Assembly (NCBI GenBank): GCA_016219835.1
Contig: JACRKL010000107.1
Location: forward strand, 1-12,343
DNA from: Candidatus Woesearchaeota archaeon
GTDB lineage: Archaea; Nanobdellota; Nanobdellia; Woesearchaeales; JACRKL01
Reading direction: 5' to 3'
DNA: 12,343 nucleotides
Shown piece by piece: positions 1-12,343 of the stretch. Under the pieces are notes generated by a model. That model made no database searches, was not told the origin of the DNA, and worked only from the letters and a program-made list of their open reading frames with translations. A program made the position numbers and the translations under genes. Numbering within the stretch: the first letter of the stretch is position 1; every line of letters starts with the position of its first letter.

Positions 1-137
1 AATCAGACAAAGAGTTGGAAGAGTAGTGAGAAAGACATGCTCATTCTCGAAATCTTTAGAAAACCACGACAAGGTTATCGGGTTGTTTCTTCAAGAAAGA
101 AACATGGAGCGTTTATCAGTCAAATGATAACACTTCC
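1..137. repeat. Left terminal inverted repeat, 137 bp, perfect reverse complement of 12207..12343
   Basis: I compared 1..137 base by base with the reverse complement of 12207..12343 and found 137/137 identical. The first mismatch is at position 138 (a) versus the complement of 12206 (c). It contains an internal 8-bp-stem hairpin at 84..104 (tgtttctt-caaga-aagaaaca). Confidence 0.96.
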
Positions 138-674
138 AAAGTTCTGATAGTATGCTTCTATTTCACTCTCATTTACAGAGACCTTTGACAAGACTGTTGC
201 ATTGAGGAATTGGGAGATCGTTATTTCCCGTTGGAAACTTTCTCTCAGCTCACCGACGGTAAGGCTATTAGCGGCGCTCACTTTCAAAAGAAATTCAAAG
301 GCACCCTCATTAACCTTAGAGGAGATATCGGCATTTACATCCGCTTCAGATGCATTAAACCCTTTCTTGATTGCCTGTTGATAAAGCAATGTTTCAATAA
401 TACTTGCATTAAGAAAGAAGCTGTGCGTGGGTAGTTCATCTGGATTGTTTGCGTATTGCCCTTCCCCCCTTTTTGACATGACATCAAAGTCTGCCTGAGT
501 AATCGGCTCACTGTTGACATAGGCAACAATGGTTTGGTTGAGGACTGCACCTACAGGAGTTACCGTTGTTGTATTAGGAGAGGTAGGAAGATCTTGGTCT
601 GATCTTTGCGTTGAGGCGCAGCCAGCAAATACTACCATAAGCAACAGCACGCTTATGATCCCCTGTTTTCTCAT
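120..674 (-). CDS. Lipoprotein with a SurA-N / PrsA-like chaperone N-terminal domain, apparently 3'-truncated at the repeat boundary
   Basis: The N-terminus MRKQGIISVLLLMVVFAGC has a lipobox-like signal. The body (VAYVNSEPITQADF.., LLYQQAIKKGF.., SEIEAYYQNF) resembles the N-terminal domain of SurA/PpiD/PrsA-type foldases, but no parvulin domain follows. The last 5 codons (GSVII) and the stop lie inside the inverted repeat (120..137). A TTTAAATA box at 697..704 sits 22 nt upstream of the ATG. Confidence 0.7.
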   Translation of the reverse strand: MRKQGIISVLLLMVVFAGCASTQRSDQDLPTSPNTTTVTPVGAVLNQTIVAYVNSEPITQADFDVMSKRGEGQYANNPDELPTHSFFLNASIIETLLYQQAIKKGFNASEADVNADISSKVNEGAFEFLLKVSAANSLTVGELRESFQREITISQFLNATVLSKVSVNESEIEAYYQNFGSVII

Positions 675-696
675 GGATGTTGGGTTAAGGCATTTG

Positions 697-704
697 TATT
701 TAAA
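697..704 (-). promoter_or_regulatory. TATA-like box (TTTAAATA on the minus strand) for the lipoprotein gene
   Basis: It lies 22 nt upstream of the ATG at 674, consistent with an archaeal leaderless promoter. Confidence 0.5.
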
Positions 705-978
705 TCTGCCTACACAAAACCTATAACTCAGATATGTTTACAGTAAGATAGTAAGACTAGCAGTGCTACCATGGCCGTCGAAACTGTGAGGATGCCATCC
801 AAAGGGCAAATGGTAATTCAGCAGGACATTAGAGAGGAGATTGATGCCAGCGAGGGAACTGTTTTTTAGTGCTATGCAACAGAGACGCAGTGATACTGCA
901 GAAACTAAAAACCCCTCCAAACGAGTGGAATTGCACTCCGCCACAGGATGACTTGCAGATGAAAGAATATTTTGGTCT

Positions 979-2073
979 TTAGACACTCACCACTACTTCC
1001 TTTTCCTTCAGATCAATCTTCTTGATCTTGCTCTGCTGCTTTAATTTTTCTTTCAATTCTTGTTCGCTGTACTTCTTGATCGCTTCCCTCATGACTTGCA
1101 AAATCTGCTGCAATTCCTGATAGTGTTCGTAGATCATCTCGCCTTTTCTCTTCTGCTCCTCTGCTTCTTTCTCCCATGTTTTGATCTGCTGCTGCTGTGC
1201 AGAGAGAATCGTTTTGACGCGCTCTATTTCTTTCTGGTGCGGCGAAGACTTGAGTTGTTGTGGTATTGCTTTCACGAGTGCTTTGATCGCTTCATTGAAC
1301 GTTGCTTGCTTGATTTGCTTTTCTTTGGGGTAGGAATGCAGGAGGAATGGAAATGCTTCGTTTTCATACAGCACAGGATCCAGTGACCGATGCAGCAATG
1401 CTTGAGCTGCTTGTAACAGATTTTTCTGCTCGTGTTGTGTTAACGCTTTTGGACTTTTTTTCTTATCGAGCTCTGCCACAAAACACGCTTCTTCTGCGTA
1501 GATGCCACCCAATCCCAAATCTGCAACAAGGCACTTGACGATCTGCTCTTTTTCCGTCAAAGCAAGCAGGTTCTTCCATGCGGTAAAGTCGAGCTCCGGC
1601 AGAGCATACGCCATCGTTGGAGCAACATAGGCGATATTTGTTTTCAAGCTCCGGTCTTTCCGTTCGAGTTGATTAAGCAATGCAATGATCTTTCCTTCTC
1701 TGACGAGGATGAGGTTGCCTTTGTTAAAGAGCTCAATGATAAGCTCATATTTTGTTTCTTTCGTTTCTAAGTTGATCTTCAGAATCCGCTCAAAGCCCAG
1801 CTGCTCGATGCTTCTGATCCTGCTTCCTTCCAGATGCTTCCTCAGCTGCATGCAGAATCCCGATGGTGCTTCGGTAGGTGATTTTTCCAGTTCAATGACG
1901 ACAATACCCGGCAGTTTTATTCGTAGAATCACTTTGCCCGTTTCCCGTGCATAGATCTGGATGAGAAACTCTTCTTTCTCCGGCTGGTAGATCTTGTCGA
2001 TCTTCCCTTCCACAAGCTGTTGGAGCTCTTTGGTTAGATAGAAGAGATCAAGAGCAGAGAGTTGTGTTTTCAT
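979..2073 (-). CDS. NFACT-family (RqcH/Rqc2/FbpA-like) protein with NFACT-N, HhH and coiled-coil regions only; the C-terminal NFACT-R region is missing
   Basis: MKTQLSALDLFYLTKELQQLVEGKIDKIYQP.., GFCMQLRKHLEG.RI and LIIELFNKGNLILV are typical of NFACT-N. DLGLGGIYAEEAC looks like an HhH motif and is followed by a coiled coil. The protein ends at ..KKIDLKEKEVVVSV after 364 aa, whereas family members I recall are about 600+ aa with a DUF814/NFACT-R domain. I chose the start at M41 of the tracked ORF because TTTATATT (2096..2103) lies 22 nt upstream of it. Confidence 0.75.
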   Translation of the reverse strand: MKTQLSALDLFYLTKELQQLVEGKIDKIYQPEKEEFLIQIYARETGKVILRIKLPGIVVIELEKSPTEAPSGFCMQLRKHLEGSRIRSIEQLGFERILKINLETKETKYELIIELFNKGNLILVREGKIIALLNQLERKDRSLKTNIAYVAPTMAYALPELDFTAWKNLLALTEKEQIVKCLVADLGLGGIYAEEACFVAELDKKKSPKALTQHEQKNLLQAAQALLHRSLDPVLYENEAFPFLLHSYPKEKQIKQATFNEAIKALVKAIPQQLKSSPHQKEIERVKTILSAQQQQIKTWEKEAEEQKRKGEMIYEHYQELQQILQVMREAIKKYSEQELKEKLKQQSKIKKIDLKEKEVVVSV

Positions 2074-2095
2074 GGTGGTGGTGGTGCGTATGGGG

Positions 2096-2103
2096 AATAT
2101 AAA
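2096..2103 (-). promoter_or_regulatory. TATA-like box (TTTATATT on the minus strand) for the NFACT gene
   Basis: It lies 22 nt upstream of the ATG at 2073. It is back-to-back with the divergent box at 2117..2124. Confidence 0.45.
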
Positions 2104-2116
2104 CGTTTGCACAATC

Positions 2117-2124
2117 TTTAAAAG
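2117..2124 (+). promoter_or_regulatory. TATA-like box (TTTAAAAG) for the 80-aa basic ORF
   Basis: It lies exactly 22 nt upstream of the ATG at 2147. Confidence 0.4.
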
Positions 2125-2146
2125 CCAAGAAAGACATTCTGGGCGT

Positions 2147-2389
2147 ATGGTCACCCATAGGCACATTGAGAAAGAGCTCAACAAATATTTCAAGGCAAAA
2201 GAGAAGAGAAAGTATGCGATTCATAAGGTCATTAAAAAGTCACATCGTGAGATCGAAGAAGATAAGATTTTAATGCGCATCAACTCCGGAGAAGATCCTC
2301 GAGTCCATGTGTTTTCTGTGGTTACGCCATTCCAGCGATCGCTGCGAAAAGCAAAAAAGTGGGTGTGGAAGAGGATCAGGAATTGGTGA
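2147..2389 (+). CDS. Hypothetical small basic protein (80 aa)
   Basis: This is an internal start (M26) of the tracked ORF 2072..2389. I chose it because of the TATA-to-ATG spacing shared with other genes here. The product is Lys/Arg-rich (MVTHRHIEKELNKYFKAKEKRKYAIHK...KKWVWKRIRNW). I recognise no family. Confidence 0.4.
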   Translation: MVTHRHIEKELNKYFKAKEKRKYAIHKVIKKSHREIEEDKILMRINSGEDPRVHVFSVVTPFQRSLRKAKKWVWKRIRNW

Positions 2390-2409
2390 GACCTTCATGA
2401 GTCTCATCT

Positions 2410-2802
2410 TTAGTACTTCAGTAATCTCAAGCCGGGAATAGAAGCATAATGTTCATCTCTGGTCACCAAGACTTCCCCATGGGCGCTTACAATACCTGCT
2501 ATCATAAGATCTTCTGTTCCTATAGGCTTTCCTTTTTTGACTAGCATTGCTTCATATTCAGCCGCATGCTTTGCACTCTGCTCATCAAGTGGCAGAATGG
2601 TGAGAGATCGAAAGAGCTCAAGTACCTTTATTTTCTCTTTTTCAGAGTGTTGTGAAAGAAGCAGACCTGCCCAAAGTTCCATGACTGAAGGTGTAGCAAC
2701 AGTGAAGTTGGTTTCCTTGCGGTCAAACGTTTCTCTAAGGTCAGCAATGCTTGCTTTCCCTCGAAGAAGGTCAATTAAAAAACACATATCAAGGCAAACC
2801 AT
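2410..2802 (-). CDS. vapC: PIN-domain ribonuclease toxin, VapC-like
   Basis: MVCLDMCFLIDLL carries the first PIN acidic residue, and further on are ..PLDEQSAKHAAEY.. and ..TEDLMIAGIVSAHGEVLVTRDEHY, a typical PIN layout. The start at M14 of the tracked ORF is preceded by GGAGGG 4 nt upstream and lies 10 nt after the antitoxin stop. Confidence 0.85.
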   Translation of the reverse strand: MVCLDMCFLIDLLRGKASIADLRETFDRKETNFTVATPSVMELWAGLLLSQHSEKEKIKVLELFRSLTILPLDEQSAKHAAEYEAMLVKKGKPIGTEDLMIAGIVSAHGEVLVTRDEHYASIPGLRLLKY

Positions 2803-2812
2803 ATTCCCTCCG

Positions 2813-3070
2813 TTAGTGATGAGCTTTGCTGAGTTCTGCAATAACGCGTCCTACCCGTTTCGTGTGGACTTTGTTTCTTGCTCTTCTCATTTCAAGGATA
2901 TTCTTCTCCAACTCTGCTCCCCCTTCTGGGCTTAAAATACCAAAGAAATCGGAGAGTGGTCTCCTCTTGGATACCCTCAAGAATAAGTCGCTAAAGCTCT
3001 CATGTTCTTCTTTAATTTTTTTCATTGCTGCATATGCATCTTCGGTTACGGTAATCGTTTTGACTGCCAT
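2813..3070 (-). CDS. vapB: VapB-type antitoxin (archaeal COG1753 / DUF217-like)
   Basis: MAVKTITVTEDAYAAMKKIKEEHESFSDLFLRV matches the remembered pattern of that family (KTI.v.de.Y..L...K...ESFSd.i..L). It lies immediately upstream of the PIN gene on the same strand. A TTTAAAGA box sits 23 nt upstream of the ATG. Confidence 0.75.
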   Translation of the reverse strand: MAVKTITVTEDAYAAMKKIKEEHESFSDLFLRVSKRRPLSDFFGILSPEGGAELEKNILEMRRARNKVHTKRVGRVIAELSKAHH

Positions 3071-3093
3071 ACCTAAGTTTATGTATGTTTAGA

Positions 3094-3101
3094 TCTTTAA
3101 A
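3094..3101 (-). promoter_or_regulatory. TATA-like box (TTTAAAGA on the minus strand) for the vapBC operon
   Basis: It lies 23 nt upstream of the vapB ATG at 3070. Confidence 0.4.
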
Positions 3102-3122
3102 TGTTGTTATGTTTACTTCGGT

Positions 3123-3863
3123 CTATGCTTTCGCTACATTCTCCCACAGATATCTGTGGTATCGTCGGTAATTGTCGGCAAGCTCTTCGCTCTCGATGAC
3201 GAAGGCAAAGTCAGAATCCCCATAGACGATATTTGCAATCTTGTTGCCAAAAATGCCCATGACTGTTGGGTTGCCGCTCCACTCTTTTGGCAGGAAGCGA
3301 ATCGTTTCAAGCTTCAAAGGTTCTCTAATTTCTTCTCTCATCTCAGAACGCATCAAATTAACCCATTTGCATTTTTTTTCTATTCTTCGACGATTCCATC
3401 CAGCAAACCACTCCGGATATTTCTTAGGTGTATATCTTCCTGAGCCGATCCAATAGACGAGATCCGCAGAAAGCATATCTTCCCATACCGCTTTGACGCC
3501 CTCCGATCCGCGAAAGACAGTTGCGTCAATGGGCGGCTTTTTGAAGGCGTAGCTCGCCAGCAACATTGGCATTTCCTTCTTGACATCTTCCTTAAGATCT
3601 TCCCAGCTTCTCTCCTTCTCTTCGATGTAGCCGATGATCTTGCTTGGGTGGGTGATCTGAAACAATCGATGCTTGTTCTCCGTCACATAGGTGATAATCC
3701 CTTTCTCGATGAGCTTGTTCAGAATGTCGTAGATATTCCTGCGTTCAATGCCGACGGATTCGTGAATGTTATTGATGGTTGACTTTCCTTTGGTCAGAAG
3801 GGTGTTGTAGACTTTGATCTCCCCGTCGGAAAGTCCAAGCTTCCTAAGAATTTCTGCTTGCAT
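3123..3863 (-). CDS. TrmB-family winged-helix transcriptional regulator
   Basis: The N-terminus LGLSDGEIKVYNTLLTKGKSTINNIHESVGIERRNIYDILNKLIEKGIITYV is a typical TrmB wHTH. The C-terminal ~150 aa domain is of unknown specificity. The gene is divergent from the 3971..5681 operon. Confidence 0.85.
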   Translation of the reverse strand: MQAEILRKLGLSDGEIKVYNTLLTKGKSTINNIHESVGIERRNIYDILNKLIEKGIITYVTENKHRLFQITHPSKIIGYIEEKERSWEDLKEDVKKEMPMLLASYAFKKPPIDATVFRGSEGVKAVWEDMLSADLVYWIGSGRYTPKKYPEWFAGWNRRRIEKKCKWVNLMRSEMREEIREPLKLETIRFLPKEWSGNPTVMGIFGNKIANIVYGDSDFAFVIESEELADNYRRYHRYLWENVAKA

Positions 3864-3884
3864 AAGGATACCATGCTGAGGGTG

Positions 3885-3895
3885 TATTTATATTT
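3885..3895 (-). promoter_or_regulatory. TATA-like box (AAATATAAATA on the minus strand) for the TrmB-family gene
   Basis: The core ATATAAAT (3886..3893) lies 22 nt upstream of the ATG at 3863. Confidence 0.45.
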
Positions 3896-3897
3896 TA

Positions 3898-3916
3898 TGG
3901 TATTGTTACAATACCA
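3898..3916. promoter_or_regulatory. Perfect 9-1-9 palindrome TGGTATTGT-t-ACAATACCA, candidate operator
   Basis: I checked this by hand as a perfect inverted repeat. It lies between the two divergent TATA-like boxes (3885..3895 and 3923..3934), over the positions where their BRE elements would be. Confidence 0.5.
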
Positions 3917-3922
3917 CATCGG

Positions 3923-3934
3923 TTTAATATAAAA
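3923..3934 (+). promoter_or_regulatory. TATA-like box (TTTAATATAAAA) for the 3971..5681 operon
   Basis: This A/T-rich box lies about 37 nt upstream of the ATG at 3971. GGTGA (3961..3965) between them could serve as an SD, which implies a short leader. Confidence 0.4.
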
Positions 3935-3970
3935 CTCTACTTTTTAGTAGTACTACAAAAGGTGAACGTA

Positions 3971-4405
3971 ATGACTCAAGAACAAAAAGATGAACATTAT
4001 AAACCGTCGGAAAATAAATCCCGTTTTGGTACCTTTCTCACGGGTTCAATCCTTGTAGCAGGGGCAGTTATGGGTCTGATGTTTATTGACCGATGTACTC
4101 CTCTTGGTGGAAGTTATCAAATAAGAAAATCATCGGGTTATACATTTACTAACTATACGGACATTAACAACGACGGAAAAAAGGAGTTAGAGCTTCAGCT
4201 TGCAGATGGTAATCTCTTTTATGTCTTTGTTCCTACCCATGGAGTGTACAAAGGAAAACCAGTTGTTCTCCCGAAGTCTTTAGCAGAAAAAGTGTGTGAT
4301 CCTTGCTCTTCTTCTGCACCAATTCCAACACCAATCCAAACTCCGAATCCATCGCAGATTTCTCTCGAGACAGCAATTACGACGTACGGAGGAAGACACC
4401 CATGA
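3971..4405 (+). CDS. Hypothetical single-pass membrane-anchored protein with a Pro/Ser/Thr-rich tail
   Basis: There is one hydrophobic helix (FGTFLTGSILVAGAVMGLMFI). DINNDGKKELELQL is an FG-GAP/Ca-binding-like motif, and the tail is SSSAPIPTPIQTPNPSQ. The ATG at 3971 is preceded by GGTGA; a GTG at 3962 is an alternative start. The stop overlaps the next ATG (ATGA at 4402..4405). Confidence 0.55.
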   Translation: MTQEQKDEHYKPSENKSRFGTFLTGSILVAGAVMGLMFIDRCTPLGGSYQIRKSSGYTFTNYTDINNDGKKELELQLADGNLFYVFVPTHGVYKGKPVVLPKSLAEKVCDPCSSSAPIPTPIQTPNPSQISLETAITTYGGRHP

Positions 4406-4926
4406 ATATCGACGATACTATTCGGATTGTCTGGTTTGACATGCATCCAGCAGTTCGTAATATGATGCGGGAAAAACTAAAAGATGAAAACGGCAATAAA
4501 ATTACGATCATGCCTTACCAAGATCCTTCTCAGTTAAAGGAAGTTGAACGAAGAGTCAGAGACTTCCCACCTAACTTGATCATCACCGATTTGATTTTCA
4601 GTGAAATCAATGATGGAGATACAGCATACCAGTTTGTTCAACAGATGAAGCAGAGCAGGGAATTAAGAGAAGTGCCTCTTATTGTTTTGAGCGCTTGGGT
4701 CTCTGATGATCCTAAGAGTAAATTCTATAACGGCAGATTTGTAGATGCAGGGGCAGTTGCTGTCTACAACAAGCACCCAGAATATATTCCACCGTTAAGG
4801 GAGCTTGTTGCTTATGCAAAACCCTACTCCCCATCAGAAACTCCTTCTGTCCAAGTGCCATCCCAAAATCCGTTGTCGTGTCTTGTAGGATATTTCAATA
4901 ATTTCTTCGGAGGAACACCAAAATGA
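4402..4926 (+). CDS. Stand-alone CheY-like receiver (REC) domain protein with a Pro/Ser-rich C-terminal tail
   Basis: The REC landmarks occur in order: IRIVWFDMHP (beta1, with only one acidic residue), NLIITDLIF (candidate phospho-acceptor Asp), PLIVLSAW (conserved Ser/Thr) and AVYNKHP (conserved Lys). I chose the start at M34 of the tracked ORF because GGAGG lies about 10 nt upstream and the ATGA overlaps the upstream stop. Confidence 0.65.
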   Translation: MNIDDTIRIVWFDMHPAVRNMMREKLKDENGNKITIMPYQDPSQLKEVERRVRDFPPNLIITDLIFSEINDGDTAYQFVQQMKQSRELREVPLIVLSAWVSDDPKSKFYNGRFVDAGAVAVYNKHPEYIPPLRELVAYAKPYSPSETPSVQVPSQNPLSCLVGYFNNFFGGTPK

Positions 4927-5681
4927 ACTACATCAAAAAAACAATAGCAACCCTTGCACTGATCGTAGCAACAGCACTTCCAGCATACGCATCCGATATC
5001 TTCATAGGCAAAAGAGGTCCAACATCGTGGCAAGTCGATCAACGTCTCAGTCTTGCAGAAAATGAATTACATTTAGAAACCATCACATCCAACACGATCT
5101 TCAAATATTGGACCGGTAAAGAAAAAGGCGGCTGGTTTTTTGTGAATCTGCCGTACAAACATCTTTCGTTGAAAGACGAAGAAAACAGCGGACTTGGCGA
5201 TCTCATCATCGGCGGTGGTCCTCGAGGAACTTTTTCCTTTGGAAAAGCAGGACAGCTTGATGTCCTCAGCTACGGCTCACTCACACTTCCAACTGGAGAA
5301 ACAGCAGCAAAGCTTCCGCTGGGCAATGGACGATATGATCTTACTGCTGGCATTTTTGCAAGCTACGTGCATCCTGAGTTTGATGTGCACGCTTCAGCTT
5401 CCTACACTGCAACGGGAGAAAATAAGAAAGGCATCAATCCTCCTGATAAAACTGATTTAGGCATGGTTATCGGTAGAGAAGTGGTCAAGAACTTTCGGCT
5501 TGCGGCTGGCATGACGACACAACAGCTCGATGATGGCAGGCATCTCGAGTCTGCTCGCATAGTGGGAAGATATACCTTTTCGCCAAACCTGCATATAGAA
5601 CTCATCGGCGACTACGGAACAGGACATAATAGCATGCCGTTGCAGAATAGCGCAATGTTTATTCTGAGGTATAATCTCTAA
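4923..5681 (+). CDS. Secreted protein resembling bacterial outer-membrane beta-barrel 'transporter' proteins (Phenol_MetA_deg / COG4313-like)
   Basis: It has a Sec signal (MNYIKKTIATLALIVATALPAYA|SD). NSGLGDLIIGGGP, SLTLPTGE and LPLGNGRYDLTAGIFASY match the GlGDl / aPTG / lG.g.w motif order that I recall for that family. The alternating hydrophobic pattern continues to the C-terminus (MFILRYNL). The ATGA overlaps the REC gene stop. Confidence 0.55.
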   Translation: MNYIKKTIATLALIVATALPAYASDIFIGKRGPTSWQVDQRLSLAENELHLETITSNTIFKYWTGKEKGGWFFVNLPYKHLSLKDEENSGLGDLIIGGGPRGTFSFGKAGQLDVLSYGSLTLPTGETAAKLPLGNGRYDLTAGIFASYVHPEFDVHASASYTATGENKKGINPPDKTDLGMVIGREVVKNFRLAAGMTTQQLDDGRHLESARIVGRYTFSPNLHIELIGDYGTGHNSMPLQNSAMFILRYNL

Positions 5682-5708
5682 ATGCCTCAAGATATTTCTT
5701 TGCGGAGA

Positions 5709-5717
5709 TTTTATATA
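5709..5717 (+). promoter_or_regulatory. TATA-like box (TTTTATATA) upstream of ORF 5766..6056
   Basis: It lies about 48 nt upstream of the ATG at 5766. GAGGTGG (5755..5761) is 4 nt upstream of that ATG. Confidence 0.35.
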
Positions 5718-5765
5718 CCAGAAACCCCTTTCTAAACTCATCAGAGTTTGTATCGAGGTGGAAAC

Positions 5766-6056
5766 ATGAGATCTATTACTGATATCATCAAAAAATGCAG
5801 TATCCCCGTTGTAGTTATGTCTATCCCACTCTTTGCAGGCAATGTAATCAGCTTCATTGGAATAATGGAAGCTAATACGTGCAGAATTGTGCATCAGTGC
5901 AGCATCGACAATCGTTTTGAGAACTATCTCGCCTCAACGCAGAAAACGTTTGGTGTTCATGTTGGAAGTACGGCGTTAGCATATTTCACGTATCCGGGAG
6001 CGCATGCAGCAGCAGAAGTGATCAATTATCAGATAGACACTCGTTATCAGAAATAG
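5766..6056 (+). CDS. Hypothetical protein (96 aa)
   Basis: This is an internal start (M7) of tracked ORF 5748..6056, with a strong SD (GAGGTGG) and an upstream TATA-like box. I recognise no family. I preferred it over the antisense ORF 5457..5894, which has no signals and overlaps the beta-barrel gene by 225 nt. Confidence 0.4.
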   Translation: MRSITDIIKKCSIPVVVMSIPLFAGNVISFIGIMEANTCRIVHQCSIDNRFENYLASTQKTFGVHVGSTALAYFTYPGAHAAAEVINYQIDTRYQK

Positions 6057-6075
6057 CTGTTGAACTCTGACCTTC

Positions 6076-7332
6076 TCACGTCCCTTCCTGCCAGCTCGCC
6101 AGATATTTTCTTTGCTCGTCAGTTAAGGTATCAATCTTCATGCCCAGTGCATCAAGCTGCAATGCTGCAATGTGATCATCGATCTCTGCAGGAAGCGTGA
6201 TCACAACCGGTTTTAATTTGCCTTTGTGTTTCACGAGATATTCGCATGCCAATGCCTGTCCGCAGAACGAGGTTGCCATTACCGTGCTGGGATGACCTTC
6301 TGCGCATGCTAAATTAACCAGCCTTCCTTCTCCTGCGACCATAATCTTCTTGCTATCGACAAGGTATTCATCAAACAACGGTCGGATCGTCCTCTTCGGA
6401 TACTTTGCAAGCGCAGACATTTCTATTTCATGATCAAAATGCCCTGAGTTTGCAAGCACTGTTCCATCTTTCATGGTTTTGATATGCTCCATTCTGATGA
6501 CGTGCTTGTTGCCGGTGACGGTGATAAACACATCGCCGATCTTCGCTGCTTCTTTCATTGGCATCACAGCAAAGCCGTCATAAACTGCTTGCAGAGCTGC
6601 GAAATGATCCACTTCAGTCACAATGACCCTTGCCCCCAACCCATCGGCTCGCAGTGCAACACCTTTGCCGCAGCTGCCATATCCCAATACAACAACAACC
6701 TTGCCCGCGAAAAGAATGTTGGAAGCTCGTAACAATCCATCAATCGTACTCTGGCCTGTCCCCAGATAATTGTCTAACAAATGCTTGGTCTTGTTATCAT
6801 TCACAGCAATCATCGGATACTTAAGGGCTTTCTCTTGCTCCATCGCCTTGAGCCGAATAACTCCGGTTGTTGTCTCTTCGCAGCCGCCGATAATGCTGGG
6901 TATCAAAGCAGCATGCTTCTGATGAATCTCCGTTACCAGATCACAGCCATCATCGATCGTGATGTTCGGCTTGGTTGCAATGACCTTGTTGAGAAACGTG
7001 TAATAATCCTCTTTGGATTCTCCTTTGTATGCCCAGACTTTAACACCATCGGCTGCCAATGCAGCACAGACATCATCTTGGGCAGAAAGCGGATTGCATC
7101 CTGTAATGGCAACATCGGCTCCGCCTGCCGCCAAGGTCTTGACAAGGACAGCAGTCTCCTTGGTGACGTGCAATGCCAACGCTATGCGCATACCTTTGAA
7201 TGGTTTTTCCTTGGCAAAACGCTCTTTGATCTTCAGCAAGGCAGGCATCTGCATTTCTGCCCATGCAATATTTTTTCTTCCCTGTTCTGCGAGCTTGATG
7301 TCCTGTACCGTGTAATTTTCTGCCTGCATCAT
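6076..7332 (-). CDS. ahcY: S-adenosyl-L-homocysteine hydrolase, short archaeal-type form (possibly S-inosylhomocysteine hydrolase)
   Basis: The full-length 418 aa product carries ITGCNPLSAQDDVCAALA, the NAD fold VVVLGYGSCGKGVALRADGLGARVIVTEVD and the C-terminal DEQRKYLASWQEGT. AGGTGA lies 5 nt upstream of the ATG, and the gene is 19 nt downstream of the kinase gene. Confidence 0.93.
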   Translation of the reverse strand: MMQAENYTVQDIKLAEQGRKNIAWAEMQMPALLKIKERFAKEKPFKGMRIALALHVTKETAVLVKTLAAGGADVAITGCNPLSAQDDVCAALAADGVKVWAYKGESKEDYYTFLNKVIATKPNITIDDGCDLVTEIHQKHAALIPSIIGGCEETTTGVIRLKAMEQEKALKYPMIAVNDNKTKHLLDNYLGTGQSTIDGLLRASNILFAGKVVVVLGYGSCGKGVALRADGLGARVIVTEVDHFAALQAVYDGFAVMPMKEAAKIGDVFITVTGNKHVIRMEHIKTMKDGTVLANSGHFDHEIEMSALAKYPKRTIRPLFDEYLVDSKKIMVAGEGRLVNLACAEGHPSTVMATSFCGQALACEYLVKHKGKLKPVVITLPAEIDDHIAALQLDALGMKIDTLTDEQRKYLASWQEGT

Positions 7333-7351
7333 GGTTTCACCTTTGTTATCG

Positions 7352-8251
7352 TTAAAATTCCCTCATGGTTCTGAATTCATGAACGCGTTTCTCAATATCA
7401 TTCCATGTCAACTTCTTCATGCGCTCCAGCGAAAAGTCCTCTGCATTAAAGGAAGCAAGCGCACTGCCATAAACGATCGCTTTCCGCAGATTCTTCTCCG
7501 ATATATCGCCTGTTTTTGCCAGATAACCGAGCAGTGCTCCTCCAAACGCATCGCCGCATCCGGTAGGATCCTTGATCATTTCTAATGGATAACCGGGCGC
7601 ATTGAAATGCTTTCCCTCAGTAAACAGGAGAGCTCCATGCTCGCCTTTTTTTATGATAACTCCTTGCACGCCCATCTTCAGTGCTTCCTGTGCAGCCTTC
7701 ACAAGATTGGGTGTTTCAAAAAGCTGTCGCGCTTCCGCGTCGTTCAGGAGCAGAATATCTACTTTGCGTATGGCTTTCTTCAACGCGTCTGGCTTTGTCT
7801 TGATCCACAAATCTCTGGTATCAAGTAGTGTCAGCTTTGGCTCAACCAGCTGCTCAATCACTTGCAGTTGCATCTCCGGATCAATATTAGCGAGGAACAC
7901 ATACTTTCCTTGCTGATATTCGAGGGGGAGTTTTGGCTCGAAGTCGATCAGCGATCCCAAAATGAGATGAGTGGTATTCGCTTCATGCATCGTGTATTCA
8001 TAGACCCCTTCCCAGCGGAAGCTTGCTCCTCGTTTCTGGATCCCTGCGAGATTGATGTGCTTTGCTGCAAGGAGATCCAAGTGTTCTTCTGGAAAATCGG
8101 TGCCAACAATGCTCACGATGCCTGGCTTTGCAAAGAAGGAAGCTGCAAAGGCTGCATAGCTCGCAGATCCTCCAAGAATATTCCGATGTTTACCGAATGG
8201 TGTTTCTACACTGTCGAGAGCAACGGTCCCCAAGATGATTGGATTAGGCAT
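7352..8251 (-). CDS. PfkB-family sugar/nucleoside kinase (adenosine/nucleoside kinase-like)
   Basis: GGSASYAAFAAS sits near the N-terminus and DPTGCGDAFGGALLGYL (PfkB signature 2) near the C-terminus. I chose the start at M81 of the tracked ORF because TTTAAATA (8274..8281) lies 22 nt upstream. The longer N-terminal extension would be antisense to the 83-aa gene. Confidence 0.85.
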   Translation of the reverse strand: MPNPIILGTVALDSVETPFGKHRNILGGSASYAAFAASFFAKPGIVSIVGTDFPEEHLDLLAAKHINLAGIQKRGASFRWEGVYEYTMHEANTTHLILGSLIDFEPKLPLEYQQGKYVFLANIDPEMQLQVIEQLVEPKLTLLDTRDLWIKTKPDALKKAIRKVDILLLNDAEARQLFETPNLVKAAQEALKMGVQGVIIKKGEHGALLFTEGKHFNAPGYPLEMIKDPTGCGDAFGGALLGYLAKTGDISEKNLRKAIVYGSALASFNAEDFSLERMKKLTWNDIEKRVHEFRTMREF

Positions 8252-8273
8252 AGACCCTAAAAAAGGGCGATGA

Positions 8274-8281
8274 TATTTAAA
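8274..8281 (-). promoter_or_regulatory. TATA-like box (TTTAAATA on the minus strand) for the kinase-ahcY operon
   Basis: It lies 22 nt upstream of the ATG at 8251. Confidence 0.5.
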
Positions 8282-8298
8282 GATTGTGAGAAGTCCGT

Positions 8299-8550
8299 CT
8301 ACCTTTTCCGAACCCTCTTCATCCACCACTGCTTCACCACCGCGAGGGTCAGCGTAGAAAGCAGGAACCCGGCAACTGGCACGAGCGCATTGAGCCATGG
8401 GTTTGGTGCGTTGATTAAGAATAGAAAGAGCACAACGATGAAATATGTAATCAGGGCAATAATACCTCTTCTCGTCTTGCTCGTCTCCCAAGCTTTGTCT
8501 CCTTCAACTCGCTTGTTTCTTGCTTTGATGGACTCAAGTTCTGCTTGCAT
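8299..8550 (-). CDS. Small conserved-looking two-helix membrane protein (83 aa)
   Basis: MQAELESIKARNKRVEGDKAWETSKTRR is followed by two hydrophobic helices (IIALITYFIVVLFLFLI and ALVPVAGFLLSTLTLAVV). The N-terminal amphipathic helix with a DKAWETS motif looks familiar from small membrane proteins, but I cannot name the family. I chose the start at M31 of the tracked ORF because of the TATA box about 21 nt upstream. Confidence 0.6.
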   Translation of the reverse strand: MQAELESIKARNKRVEGDKAWETSKTRRGIIALITYFIVVLFLFLINAPNPWLNALVPVAGFLLSTLTLAVVKQWWMKRVRKR

Positions 8551-8571
8551 AGAATAATGATGGTACAAGGA

Positions 8572-8579
8572 GTATAAAT
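8572..8579 (-). promoter_or_regulatory. TATA-like box (ATTTATAC on the minus strand) for the 83-aa gene
   Basis: It lies 21-22 nt upstream of the ATG at 8550. It forms one arm of an imperfect inverted repeat with 8598..8609. Confidence 0.4.
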
Positions 8580-8597
8580 GAGTTGCGGCAGAGCAAG

Positions 8598-8605
8598 ATT
8601 TATAA
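8598..8605 (+). promoter_or_regulatory. TATA-like box (ATTTATAA) for the polytopic membrane protein gene
   Basis: It lies 35 nt upstream of the ATG at 8641, which implies a leader of about 12 nt. Confidence 0.35.
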
Positions 8606-8640
8606 CTCCCATTATGCTGAGTAGATTCTACACCGTTCAA

Positions 8641-9180
8641 ATGGATCTTAACTCATTCGTCTCCTGGATGCTGGACATCGGCATAGATGAAGTAGCCCTT
8701 CCTTTTCTCCTGTTTTTCATCATCCTCTATGTCGGTCTCGGGAAAATCAACATATTTCAGAAAGAGAAGAATCCCAGAGTCTTATTCGCTTTGGTGATGT
8801 CCTTCATCCCGATCATCGCCCACGTCATGCATCTCTATCCGCCCTGTTGGGATGTTGTCGATGTCATCAACCATGCGTTTGCAGACATTGCTTATTTCAT
8901 CCTTGGCATCCTGATATTTGTCATGGTGGTTGGCTTTATTGGCTTCAGCGTTAGCAGCATTCAGAAGCTGCTTGGCTGGTTTTCGATCGCTGCCTTTGGA
9001 TTTGTTGTCTATGCGTTTATCACGTCAACGGAGAGGGGATGTGTCAATCTTGACATCGGCTTGCTGGATAGCAATCTGTTTTGGTTGATTTTGCTCATCG
9101 TCCTTGCTTTCTTCCTCATCCGCTGGCTGATCAAGAAATTAGGTGGCGGACACGATGGTCATGGAAGCCATGGGCATTAA
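8641..9180 (+). CDS. Polytopic membrane protein with a His/Gly-rich C-terminus
   Basis: It has about 5 hydrophobic segments and ends in KKLGGGHDGHGSHGH. The start is uncertain: 8641 is preferred from the TATA position, and 8578 (preceded by AAGGAG) and 8614 are in-frame alternatives. Its stop overlaps the convergent thrS stop within TTAA (9177..9180). Confidence 0.6.
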   Translation: MDLNSFVSWMLDIGIDEVALPFLLFFIILYVGLGKINIFQKEKNPRVLFALVMSFIPIIAHVMHLYPPCWDVVDVINHAFADIAYFILGILIFVMVVGFIGFSVSSIQKLLGWFSIAAFGFVVYAFITSTERGCVNLDIGLLDSNLFWLILLIVLAFFLIRWLIKKLGGGHDGHGSHGH

Positions 9181-11120
9181 AGTACCAGCTTCCTCTCATC
9201 CTTCACTTTCTTCAGCCGCTCAACAAGCTCATGGGCTTTCACGCCAAACTCGACGTTATTACCTATCCTCACCGCAAGCGTCTTTGCTTCCATTTCTTTA
9301 TCGCCGATCGTCACAATAACGGGAATATGCATCTTCTCAGCATCCATGACTTTCTTAGGGATGGTGTTTGCCTTGTAGTCTGTTTCTACACGAATATCGA
9401 CGGCAGCAAGTGCTTTCTTGACGTCTTCTGCATAATCGATGTGCCGATCCGCAACCGTCAACAGAGCAACTTGCACAGGGCTTAACCAGAACGGGAATCT
9501 GCCGCCAAAATGCTCGATCAAAAATGCCATGAACCGTTCATGCGTGCTCAATGGAGCACGGTGGATGACATAGACGTCCGGGTTCTGCTTGCCGTGGTCA
9601 TCGACATAAAATAATCCGAATCGTTTCTTCGCTGCGAAATCAAGCTGCACGGTTGACATGGTCTCTTCTCTTCCAAAGACATTCTTGAATTGCACGTCGA
9701 TCTTTGGCCCATAGAATGCTGCTTCATTCGCTGCTTCGACGAATTTGAGCTTTAATTTTAGGAGCACATCACGCAAGACTTCTTCAGCATGATCCCAGCT
9801 GTGCGGTTCATCTATGTATTTTTCTTTGTTGCTCCGCTCTCCCAGGGAAAGTCTGAACCAATAGTCTTTCAGCCCAAAGGTTTCGAAGTATCCTTTGATC
9901 AAACTCAACACTGCTTCGATCTCGTCGTAAATTTGCTCTTTTGTGCAATAGATGTGCGCATCATTCATGCGCATGCTCCTTACTCTAAGAAGTCCGTTTA
10001 ACGTCCCAGATAACTCTTTGCGGTAACACGTTCCATACTCCGCAAGTCGTAATGGAAGCTCGCGATAGCTTCGCTGCTTCATCCTGAAAATGAGATGATG
10101 CATCGGGCAGTTCATTGCCTTGAGATAATAATCGCCATCATCCAACGTCATTTTAGGATACATGCTTTCTTCATAATATGGCAGATGTCCCGACGTCAAA
10201 AAGAGTTCTTTCTTCGCGAGGTGTGGCGTACTTACGCGAACATAGCCGCCTTTCTTCTCCATATCCATGGCAAAATTCTCAATCTCCTGCCGCATGACTT
10301 CACCTTTCGGTAGCCAGACAGGAAGACCTTTACCGATCATTTCAAATTGAGCAAAAAGCTCTAGCTCTTCACCGAGCTTTTTGTGATTGCGTTGTTCAGC
10401 AAGCTCCTGCTGCTCAAGGTACTGCTTGAGCATTTTTGCATCAGGGTAGCTGACGCCATAGATCCGTTGCAAGCTCTGCTTGCTTTGGTCTCCTCGCCAA
10501 TAGGCACTGCTCACTTTCGTCAACTTGAACGCTTTGATCTTTCCTGTGCTTGGCAAATGAGGACCTCTGCACAAGTCTGAGAAATCTCCTTGCGTGTAGA
10601 TCGACACCTTTGTTTCCCCTGCTTTTGCAAATTCGTCGAGCAGCTCGAGCTTGAAGTGATTTTTGGCATAGATCTTCTTCGCTTCAGCAATGCTCACTTC
10701 TTTCCTGCTGACCTTGTAATCGGCTGCAGCGATCTTCTGCATCTCTGCTTCGATCTTGCTCAGATCATCGGGGGTAAATGGTTCCTTTTTCTCAAAGTCG
10801 TAATAGAATCCCGTTTCAATAGCAGGTCCAATAGTGAGTTTCACATCCGACCAGAGCTTCACGATTGCTTGTGCGAGCAGATGTGCAGATGAATGCCAGA
10901 AAACTTCTTTGCCTTCTGTTCTATCGAATGTGATGATCTCGATCTTGGCATCATGCTCCAGTGGAAGAAAGAGATCCTGCATCTTTCCATTCACTTTGAT
11001 AATGAGAGCTGCTTCTGCCAATCGTTTCCCGATCAGCGCAGCAAACTCGCGGCCCAGCATTCCTTTCTTTACCTCTTTGGTAGATCCGTCTGGTAAGGTA
11101 ATGGTTATCATGCTGCTCAT
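9177..11120 (-). CDS. thrS: Threonine--tRNA ligase, bacterial-type architecture (TGS, editing, class II catalytic and anticodon-binding domains)
   Basis: The 647 aa product has ITITLPDGS (TGS), WHSSAHLLAQA and DLCRGPHLPSTG (editing-domain motifs), NCPMHHLIF, MNDAHIYC and VIHRAPLSTHERF (Zn and class II motifs), and an anticodon-binding C-terminus. GGTGA lies upstream of the ATG, and the TATA-like box is at 11156..11163. Confidence 0.95.
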   Translation of the reverse strand: MSSMITITLPDGSTKEVKKGMLGREFAALIGKRLAEAALIIKVNGKMQDLFLPLEHDAKIEIITFDRTEGKEVFWHSSAHLLAQAIVKLWSDVKLTIGPAIETGFYYDFEKKEPFTPDDLSKIEAEMQKIAAADYKVSRKEVSIAEAKKIYAKNHFKLELLDEFAKAGETKVSIYTQGDFSDLCRGPHLPSTGKIKAFKLTKVSSAYWRGDQSKQSLQRIYGVSYPDAKMLKQYLEQQELAEQRNHKKLGEELELFAQFEMIGKGLPVWLPKGEVMRQEIENFAMDMEKKGGYVRVSTPHLAKKELFLTSGHLPYYEESMYPKMTLDDGDYYLKAMNCPMHHLIFRMKQRSYRELPLRLAEYGTCYRKELSGTLNGLLRVRSMRMNDAHIYCTKEQIYDEIEAVLSLIKGYFETFGLKDYWFRLSLGERSNKEKYIDEPHSWDHAEEVLRDVLLKLKLKFVEAANEAAFYGPKIDVQFKNVFGREETMSTVQLDFAAKKRFGLFYVDDHGKQNPDVYVIHRAPLSTHERFMAFLIEHFGGRFPFWLSPVQVALLTVADRHIDYAEDVKKALAAVDIRVETDYKANTIPKKVMDAEKMHIPVIVTIGDKEMEAKTLAVRIGNNVEFGVKAHELVERLKKVKDERKLVL

Positions 11121-11155
11121 AGTTTCACCCTCTCCGGAAAAGCAATGGTTGGGGG

Positions 11156-11163
11156 ATATTTAT
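11156..11163 (-). promoter_or_regulatory. TATA-like box (ATAAATAT on the minus strand) for thrS
   Basis: It lies 35 nt upstream of the ATG at 11120. The GGAGAGGGTGA SD-like tract lies between them. Confidence 0.4.
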
Positions 11164-11190
11164 AGGTTGTGATGGTGTTTGTAGGAATGG

Positions 11191-12171
11191 CTAATGCAGT
11201 GCATGCGGATAGAGATCAAGCTTGAACTCCTTTGAGACAATGCAGAACTCATGATTCCGAATGAGGTCTGGAAATTGCTCCTTCAGGTTGAGAATGATAT
11301 TCTGAAATGCGTCATAGCTCTCCAGCTCGAAGTCAATCTCAAAATCCCAGTTGCCGATCACCTTTTGTGGCCAGACTGCTCCTTGCACTGTAGAGACATA
11401 CGTAATGAACCGGTTAAGCTTTTCCTTTGGCGGGTTTGAAAGAAAGAGCATAAGTTTGCAGAAGATGTTTCCCAACGCTTTTGGATCAAGATGAGCTTTG
11501 TAGGCGAGGATAACTCCTTTGCGTTCCAGTTCCTTGATGCGGTACTGCACAATCCTTGCCGTTGTTTTTATCTTTTGAGCAATCTCGGTGACTGGCATCC
11601 GACCATGGTTTGCCAGTATGCGCAGGATTTTTTCATCCATCTCATGGATCTTGAGCTGAGGATCTTTCGTCGTATGGTAGACGGTTTGGATTGCTGGATC
11701 TTTTTTATCTTTCAGAAATGTTCTTGATTGATGCGCAAGATACAGTGTAGTAGTGACTGCTTTTTCTTGAACGACTGCTGAAAATCTGTTTAAGGCTTGC
11801 TGCATTTCATCATCAAATTCGTTTGCATTCCTGACTAAAAAGCCAACAATCAAATCCCAGCGTCCGGTAGTTATGGCAACCCACTCGGTTAGCTCATGGT
11901 CTCTGAAATATTGGGCAATATCCTCGATCTTTGCCTGGTTAGCATTGGTAAACCGCAGATAGAGCTTATATTTCACGATCCCGAGTTTGAAGTAATTGAT
12001 GACGGTATGAAATCGGAGAATAACCCCTTCGTCCATCAGCCGGTCTATGCGATACTTCACCACTTCTTTGCTCAATCGCACTGCTTTGCCGATCTGGCTG
12101 TTGGAGCGCCTCGCACGGACATCCAGTTCTGAGAGGATCTTCTGGTCTTTTGTGTCAAAATTTAATGGCAT
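11191..12171 (-). CDS. Tandem-fused Lrp/AsnC-family transcriptional regulator (two HTH + RAM-like modules in one chain)
   Basis: The two halves align by eye: KDQKILSELDVRARRSNSQIGKAVRLSKEVVKYRIDRLMDEGVILRF versus MDEKILRILANHGRMPVTEIAQKIKTTARIVQYRIKELERKGVILAY. Each half is followed by an effector-domain-like region of about 80 aa. Confidence 0.85.
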   Translation of the reverse strand: MPLNFDTKDQKILSELDVRARRSNSQIGKAVRLSKEVVKYRIDRLMDEGVILRFHTVINYFKLGIVKYKLYLRFTNANQAKIEDIAQYFRDHELTEWVAITTGRWDLIVGFLVRNANEFDDEMQQALNRFSAVVQEKAVTTTLYLAHQSRTFLKDKKDPAIQTVYHTTKDPQLKIHEMDEKILRILANHGRMPVTEIAQKIKTTARIVQYRIKELERKGVILAYKAHLDPKALGNIFCKLMLFLSNPPKEKLNRFITYVSTVQGAVWPQKVIGNWDFEIDFELESYDAFQNIILNLKEQFPDLIRNHEFCIVSKEFKLDLYPHALH

Positions 12172-12193
12172 AGTATATCATAATCACATTTTA

Positions 12194-12201
12194 TACTTAA
12201 A
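12194..12201 (-). promoter_or_regulatory. TATA-like box (TTTAAGTA on the minus strand) for the Lrp-like gene
   Basis: It lies 22 nt upstream of the ATG at 12171. The position where its BRE would be straddles the inner boundary of the right inverted repeat. Confidence 0.4.
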
Positions 12202-12206
12202 TGTTG

Positions 12207-12343
12207 GGAAGTGTTATCATTTGACTGATAAACGCTCCATGTTTCTTTCTTGAAGAAACAACCCGATAACCTTGTCGTGGTTTTCTAAAGATTTCGAGAA
12301 TGAGCATGTCTTTCTCACTACTCTTCCAACTCTTTGTCTGATT
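12207..12343. repeat. Right terminal inverted repeat, 137 bp, perfect reverse complement of 1..137
   Basis: Same comparison as for the left copy. The inner boundary at 12207 lies 36 nt upstream of the ATG of the Lrp-like gene (12171) and just outside its TATA-like box (12194..12201). Confidence 0.96.

Follow-up and report, generated by a model that had tools for sequence, protein, structure and literature searches.

What does a contig represent when it begins and ends with the same sequence in opposite orientations? This question is raised by positions 1–12,343 of contig JACRKL010000107.1 (assembly GCA_016219835.1), a 12,343-nt stretch assigned to Candidatus Woesearchaeota archaeon and referred to below, as a whole, as the window. 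Its two ends form an inverted repeat, and perfect inverted contig ends can pass for those of a complete linear element with terminal inverted repeats. An earlier description made from the letters alone (the sequence-only reading) had left four options for this locus: (a) a chromosomal segment flanked by inverted copies of a longer repeat, (b) a composite-transposon-like unit whose flanking elements lie outside the window, (c) a small linear replicon, and (d) a fold-back or assembly artefact. Our analysis favours options (a) and (b), in the form of a chromosomal segment between longer inverted repeats, and disfavours (c) and (d). The window is probably an ordinary piece of chromosome between inverted copies of a repeat longer than the part that is visible, with the assembly halted inside both copies. 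The feature is an ordinary consequence of assembling between inverted repeat copies, and its chief value is as a warning against taking such ends for those of a complete linear element.

Extent and boundaries of the inverted repeat

Positions 1–137 are the exact reverse complement of positions 12207–12343 (137/137), as the sequence-only reading had stated. The match between the arms is beyond chance, since the next-best inverted pair within the window is only 32 nt long at 72% identity. A further copy of the inner end of the repeat, allowing up to 3 mismatches, was not found within the window. Identity had also been described as stopping abruptly at position 138. That position is indeed mismatched (A in the left arm, C in the right arm once reverse-complemented), but positions 139–140 (AA) are shared by both arms again and true divergence begins only at position 141. 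The arms are thus 140 nt long with one mismatch. The inner boundary of the repeat is real and lies at 137/138, or at 140/141 when one mismatch is allowed.

Two assemblies of the same locus

The locus is also present in an independent Logan assembly (k = 31) of run SRR12113407, as a 12122-bp contig that is 100% identical to window positions 112–12233 and retains 26 repeat bases at its left end and 27 at its right end. The contig deposited at NCBI, part of a metagenome-derived genome, is recorded as 12344 bp, and the window, at 12343, is one base shorter. The missing base is predicted by the graph model described below to lie at the right end, within the repeat; if so, the deposited contig has 137 repeat bases at its left end and 138 at its right. 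Both assemblies carry both inner junctions, which indicates that these junctions are present in the reads.

The number of retained repeat bases varies with the K of the assembler while the inner boundary stays fixed, and both contigs are anchored at the same points, window position 142 to the left and the complement of position 12203 to the right. With K = 31 for Logan and K = 142 for MEGAHIT, the K-mer at the contig end includes precisely 5 inner bases at the left, the last being window position 142, and 4 at the right, so that the Logan ends retain 31 − 5 = 26 and 31 − 4 = 27 repeat bases. MEGAHIT builds unitigs from (k+1)-mer edges, so that k141 yields 142-mers. It had been argued earlier that a length of 137 matches no k or k−1 of the common maximum values, which would slightly disfavour a graph-overlap artefact; this argument fails, as 137 = 142 − 5 with the MEGAHIT maximum k of 141, the 5 being the count of inner bases up to and including the first that tells this copy apart from another one. 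The visible repeat size of 137 is a by-product of the assembler and is not biological.

The deposited contigs of a groundwater project bear names of the form k141_..., and the deposited assembly of the window appears to have been made with MEGAHIT at k141. The window probably derives from this groundwater study, an origin that fits the accession style, the organism name and the run number. That study gives MEGAHIT 1.2.9 with default settings as the assembler (He et al. 2021; PMC7906910).

Assembly graph models

Exact de Bruijn unitigs were computed for five models on synthetic sequences around the real window (Table 1). The first four models miss the Logan contig at 112–12233 by 4 and 3 bases. 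Only the model of a long repeat (R) with two further contexts, R+AAAG and R+CAA, gives both recorded contigs to the base. The two points of divergence in this model were adjusted to match the Logan ends, after which it gave both MEGAHIT ends to the base.

Table 1. Predicted contig extents for five arrangements of the repeat
Model	K = 31	K = 141/142
Exact 137-bp repeat, one orientation	108-12236	whole repeat, contig continues into flanks
Exact 137-bp repeat, both orientations	108-12236	138 and 138 repeat bases
Long two-copy inverted repeat	108-12236	140 (K = 141) or 141 (K = 142) repeat bases
Single copy plus fold-back junction	108-12236	140 (K = 141) or 141 (K = 142) repeat bases
Long repeat plus two further contexts	112-12233 (12122 bp)	K = 142: 137 left, 138 right (1-12344, 12344 bp)

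Accordingly, an exact 137-bp repeat, in one or both orientations, was rejected because its simulated span at K = 31 is not that of the Logan contig; a long two-copy repeat alone and a single copy with a fold-back junction were rejected because they do not reproduce the contig ends. Two further candidates were rejected by reasoning alone, as neither predicts a start at position 112: a bubble caused by a single-nucleotide polymorphism close to the junction, and variants in which gene conversion had exchanged base 138. All rejected models, whether simulated or reasoned, give contig starts at 108, 111 or 139.

Since only the fifth model matches, the contig ends are best understood as branch points of the assembly graph, with a repeat that is longer than its visible part and occurs in more than two contexts. 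The earlier suggestion that the repeat extends past the window gains support here, as the contig ends were reproduced in simulation only when the repeat continued outward. One other sequence in the sample would share R+AAAG and diverge at position 142, and another would share R+CAA and diverge at the next base; both are deduced from the contig ends.

The proposed mechanism is as follows. A unique 12.07-kb chromosomal stretch of Candidatus Woesearchaeota, a DPANN archaeon, would be flanked by oppositely oriented copies of the repeat, which would extend beyond the window and, within the same sample, also lie in two or more other sequence contexts. Such a repeat could not be crossed by an assembler based on de Bruijn graphs, and the unitig would end on both sides once K-mers cease to be unique. 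Each contig end would then retain K minus a few repeat bases, i.e. 137/138 with 142-mers and 26/27 with 31-mers.

A different arrangement would be an exact 137-bp repeat at which homologous recombination flips the 12-kb segment, both orientations coexisting in the population. In this model the 142-mer graph branches right at the outer edge of the repeat, so that at K = 141/142 the contig stops there or no more than one base away, close to the observed ends, and two copies without a single difference are compatible with ongoing recombination. However, at K = 31 it predicts a contig of 12129 bp (108–12236) instead of the 12122 bp (112–12233) seen in Logan, and it leaves the one-base asymmetry in both assemblies unexplained. 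Nor was an invertase or recombinase gene found in the interior by Pfam and PHROGs scans. We regard an exact invertible repeat as very unlikely.

The left junction

The left copy of the repeat cuts a gene for a SurA_N-like lipoprotein, a truncation missed by the sequence-only reading, and repeat bases 120–137 encode the final five codons of this gene (GSVII) and its stop codon. A HMMER scan with the SurA_N-like protein gave 287 relatives at E ≤ 0.001, the best 149 of which were re-aligned. Homology ends at query residues 176–181 in 146 of these 149, and the relatives extend for at least 40 further residues in 141 of the 149 (median 156). Even the short relatives have ∼45 extra residues that end in a conserved LRxxAxI segment, which is absent from the window protein. 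Because the gene ends within the repeat while 141 of the 149 relatives continue, the left junction is a true breakpoint or insertion site. That a gene is interrupted also indicates that an insertion or a rearrangement brought the left copy to this place. Disruption of a target, as expected of the insertion of an insertion sequence (IS), is thus seen at this junction, a feature that is not specific to insertion sequences.

A broken gene at the left junction could also be produced by an artefact, in which a single native repeat lies upstream of the Lrp/AsnC gene at the right end and the left copy stems from chimeric fold-back molecules or reads joined at position 138. Joined points 12 kb apart in inverted orientation are the usual geometry of amplification chimeras. 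However, neither assembly, despite very different K, has a branch at 137/138 toward the native continuation of the SurA_N-like gene, as judged from the assembled contigs; a fold-back origin would require this continuation to be absent from both. Both assemblers pass from position 138 into the repeat unbranched, where a rare chimera should have been outcompeted by the native path. A fold-back junction also predicts the wrong contig ends, with a span of 108–12236 at K = 31 and with 140–141 repeat bases kept at K = 141/142. The methods section of the probable source study mentions no amplification step, with the proviso that the link between this study and the window is circumstantial. A fold-back origin is therefore considered highly improbable.

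The right junction

The right copy of the repeat stops 35 nt before the start codon of the Lrp/AsnC gene, just outside an A/T-rich, TATA-like stretch, TTTAAGTATAAAA (gene strand), within the unique spacer at 12172–12206. This stretch is a putative promoter. The right junction could be native, or it could be a second insertion site.

A right junction that looks native, with the TATA-like stretch and the Lrp/AsnC gene intact, and a left junction that breaks a gene are the expected outcome of an inversion with a duplicated breakpoint. The whole arrangement might then be a plain inverted segmental duplication rather than a mobile element, left by a 12-kb inversion with staggered breaks, the extra contexts coming from a second strain. 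The G+C content of the repeat (0.38), which resembles that of intergenic regions, and the lack of a transposase-like match are in keeping with such an origin. Against it, a two-copy repeat alone misses the observed contig ends, so that further contexts have to be assumed, and nothing beyond the window is at hand to locate the 3′ part of the broken gene. We consider a plain duplication unlikely, and continue with a longer repeat present in several contexts as the preferred explanation.

Nature of the repeat

One frame of 48 codons is open through all 137 bases of the repeat, reading inward, and the A/C difference at position 138 is synonymous in this frame (CCA/CCC, proline). A search of 5.8 billion proteins returned no candidates for the 48-codon frame, which also has no Pfam match at E-values up to 10 and no relatives in metagenome contigs. 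The search of public databases for the 137-bp sequence that had been proposed with the sequence-only reading was carried out at the DNA level as well. Exact-pattern scans of viral contigs, GTDB species genomes and JGI metagenomes gave no match, nor did a blastn search against plasmids. The G+C content of the repeat is 0.38, compared to 0.40 for intergenic and 0.45 for coding sequence in the window.

The single-stranded DNA fold of the repeat is unremarkable (z = −1.8). Its sole stable element is a short hairpin at 83–104 (GTTTCTT CAAGA AAGAAAC) with no obvious role. The possibility that the 137 bp form a complete miniature inverted-repeat transposable element was rejected, since they lack terminal inverted repeats: the 5′ end, AATCAGACAAAG, does not match the 3′ end when the latter is reverse-complemented, GGAAGTGTTATC.

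Our tentative first guess is that the repeat is an IS-like mobile element. Of the possible readings it is the simplest, as one repeat end would recur at several sites, one of them within a gene. A duplicated chromosomal segment is the second guess and the main alternative to an IS-like element.

Several points weigh against a long repeat in several contexts. The (k+1)-mer unitig rule of MEGAHIT is taken from the published method. The difference between 12343 and 12344 may be a bookkeeping quirk and not a missing base. Run number SRR12113407 was not found in the groundwater paper or its stored supplements, which leaves the link to the MEGAHIT project unconfirmed. The outward continuation of the repeat and its extra contexts are deduced solely from the stopping points of two assemblies. 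Finally, the repeat is without a relative in any collection searched, as DNA or as protein, a result that gives no direct sign of mobility or of multiple copies.

Gene content of the interior

The features of the window are listed in Table 2. The gene inventory given by the sequence-only reading (thrS, ahcY, a kinase, regulators and a VapBC module) is as it had been described. All sizeable open reading frames (ORFs) were scanned with Pfam and PHROGs, and no match was found to transposase, integrase, recombinase, replication, partition or capsid genes; PHROG matches are limited to helix-turn-helix regulators. The same scans found no protein-primed polymerase, terminal protein or telomere resolvase. 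The absence of transposase, integrase, polymerase and capsid genes noted previously is thereby borne out. Rfam gave no match in the whole window at permissive thresholds. ARAGORN found no tRNA, and a tRNA-type attachment site is therefore absent.

Table 2. Features of the 12,343-nt window
Feature	Coordinates	Strand	Basis or remark
Left visible part of repeat R	1..137	+	reverse complement of 12207-12343; outer end is the contig end, not the repeat end
SurA_N-like lipoprotein gene (PF13624)	120..674	-	Pfam; cut after ∼residue 178 by repeat
Left junction zone AAAG	138..141	+	138 differs from right copy (A vs C), 139-140 common
Unique chromosomal segment, 12.07 kb	138..12206	.	between both repeat copies
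NFACT_N	979-2073	-	
VapC (PIN)	2410-2802	-	
VapB	2813-3070	-	
TrmB	3123-3863	-	
Three small overlapping genes	3971-5681	+	
AhcY, S-adenosylhomocysteine hydrolase (AdoHcyase)	6076-7332	-	
PfkB kinase	7352-8398	-	
Membrane protein	8641-9180	+	
ThrRS, threonyl-tRNA synthetase	9177-11120	-	
Lrp/AsnC double regulator	11191-12171	-	
35-nt unique spacer between right repeat copy and Lrp/AsnC start codon	12172..12206	-	sequence read directly
Right junction zone CAA (- strand)	12204..12206	-	arm comparison and contig ends
Right visible part of repeat	12207..12343	-	deposited contig probably one base longer (12344)

This gene content bears on the idea of a small linear, or otherwise separate, replicon of a DPANN archaeon that carries thrS and ahcY and has long terminal inverted repeats shared with sister elements. 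Both ends of the core meet the repeat, in opposite orientations, at a repeat coordinate that differs by no more than one base, the repeat would occur in other contexts, and genes cut at terminal-repeat borders occur in known linear replicons. However, the window has no replication, terminal-protein, telomere-resolvase or partition gene and carries an ordinary chromosomal gene mix. Moreover, branching in the graph accounts for the contig ends and physical ends are unneeded. We consider a separate replicon extremely improbable.

Several other features of the interior were noted. The three small genes at 3971–5681 on the forward strand are linked by 4-nt start/stop overlaps at 4402–4405 and 4923–4926 and probably form one operon. 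The first has no family and the second is weakly similar to receiver domains (E = 0.005). The third (4923–5681) encodes a Phenol_MetA_deg-type beta-barrel protein (Pfam E = 2.6e-9) on a contig that is assigned to an archaeon. The families of this protein and of the SurA_N-like lipoprotein are typical of bacterial outer-membrane biology, which is odd in an organism without an outer membrane.

The NFACT protein (364 aa) has the N-terminal and middle domains only. The ∼300 nt that follow its gene have no family match, and an ORF at 738–986 has no Pfam match. The gene seemingly lacks the usual C-terminal NFACT-R/C part, which may make it another truncated gene close to the left end. The Lrp/AsnC regulator at the opposite end is a 326-aa tandem double with two AsnC-type helix-turn-helix domains.

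Host and relatives

The proteins of the window correspond to NCBI entries MBI5391090–MBI5391105 of Candidatus Woesearchaeota archaeon. Three were looked up (MBI5391090.1, MBI5391104.1 and MBI5391105.1), all of which gave exact matches and are singletons at 90% identity. The nearest relatives of the ThrRS among species-representative genomes, from Aenigmatarchaeota and Woesearchaeota, are just 57–62% identical. The lineage is very poorly sampled. The gene order around thrS was compared in 80 loci of other genomes, where the window neighbours are absent except for one TrmB-like gene. Since no gene order is shared with these thrS relatives, the native flanks of the window cannot be derived from them. 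A repeat-associated gene disruption and a 12-kb segment that is possibly invertible, in a lineage of Woesearchaeota with so few sampled members, are of modest interest.

Comparison with known systems

The locus can be compared with three kinds of known arrangement. It resembles the large inverted repeats of plastid type, or inversion breakpoints, in that inverted copies enclose a single-copy segment and that a repeat border runs through a gene. It differs from them in its contig ends, which a repeat of two copies fails to reproduce.

The likeness to an IS-flanked, composite-transposon-like segment lies in the same repeat end abutting both sides in opposite orientations, in one copy interrupting a gene, and in a repeat that would be present in more than two contexts. 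In contrast to such segments, no transposase, terminal inverted repeat or target-site duplication is visible in the window, the rest of the element lying outside it, and the sole long open frame in the repeat is without a relative. The cargo here also consists of housekeeping genes, so that mobility of the whole unit is not implied.

Finally, the locus behaves as de Bruijn contigs broken at repeats do, where the terminal overlap scales with K (26/27 at K = 31, 137/138 at K = 142) and the interior is identical between assemblies. Unlike in such contigs, the same repeat is found here at both ends and in inverted orientation, mimicking terminal inverted repeats, and tools that look only at contig ends would score this contig as 'ITR, complete' (ITR, inverted terminal repeat). 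Comparing the same locus in assemblies of different K exposes a K-limited repeat stub without recourse to any reads.

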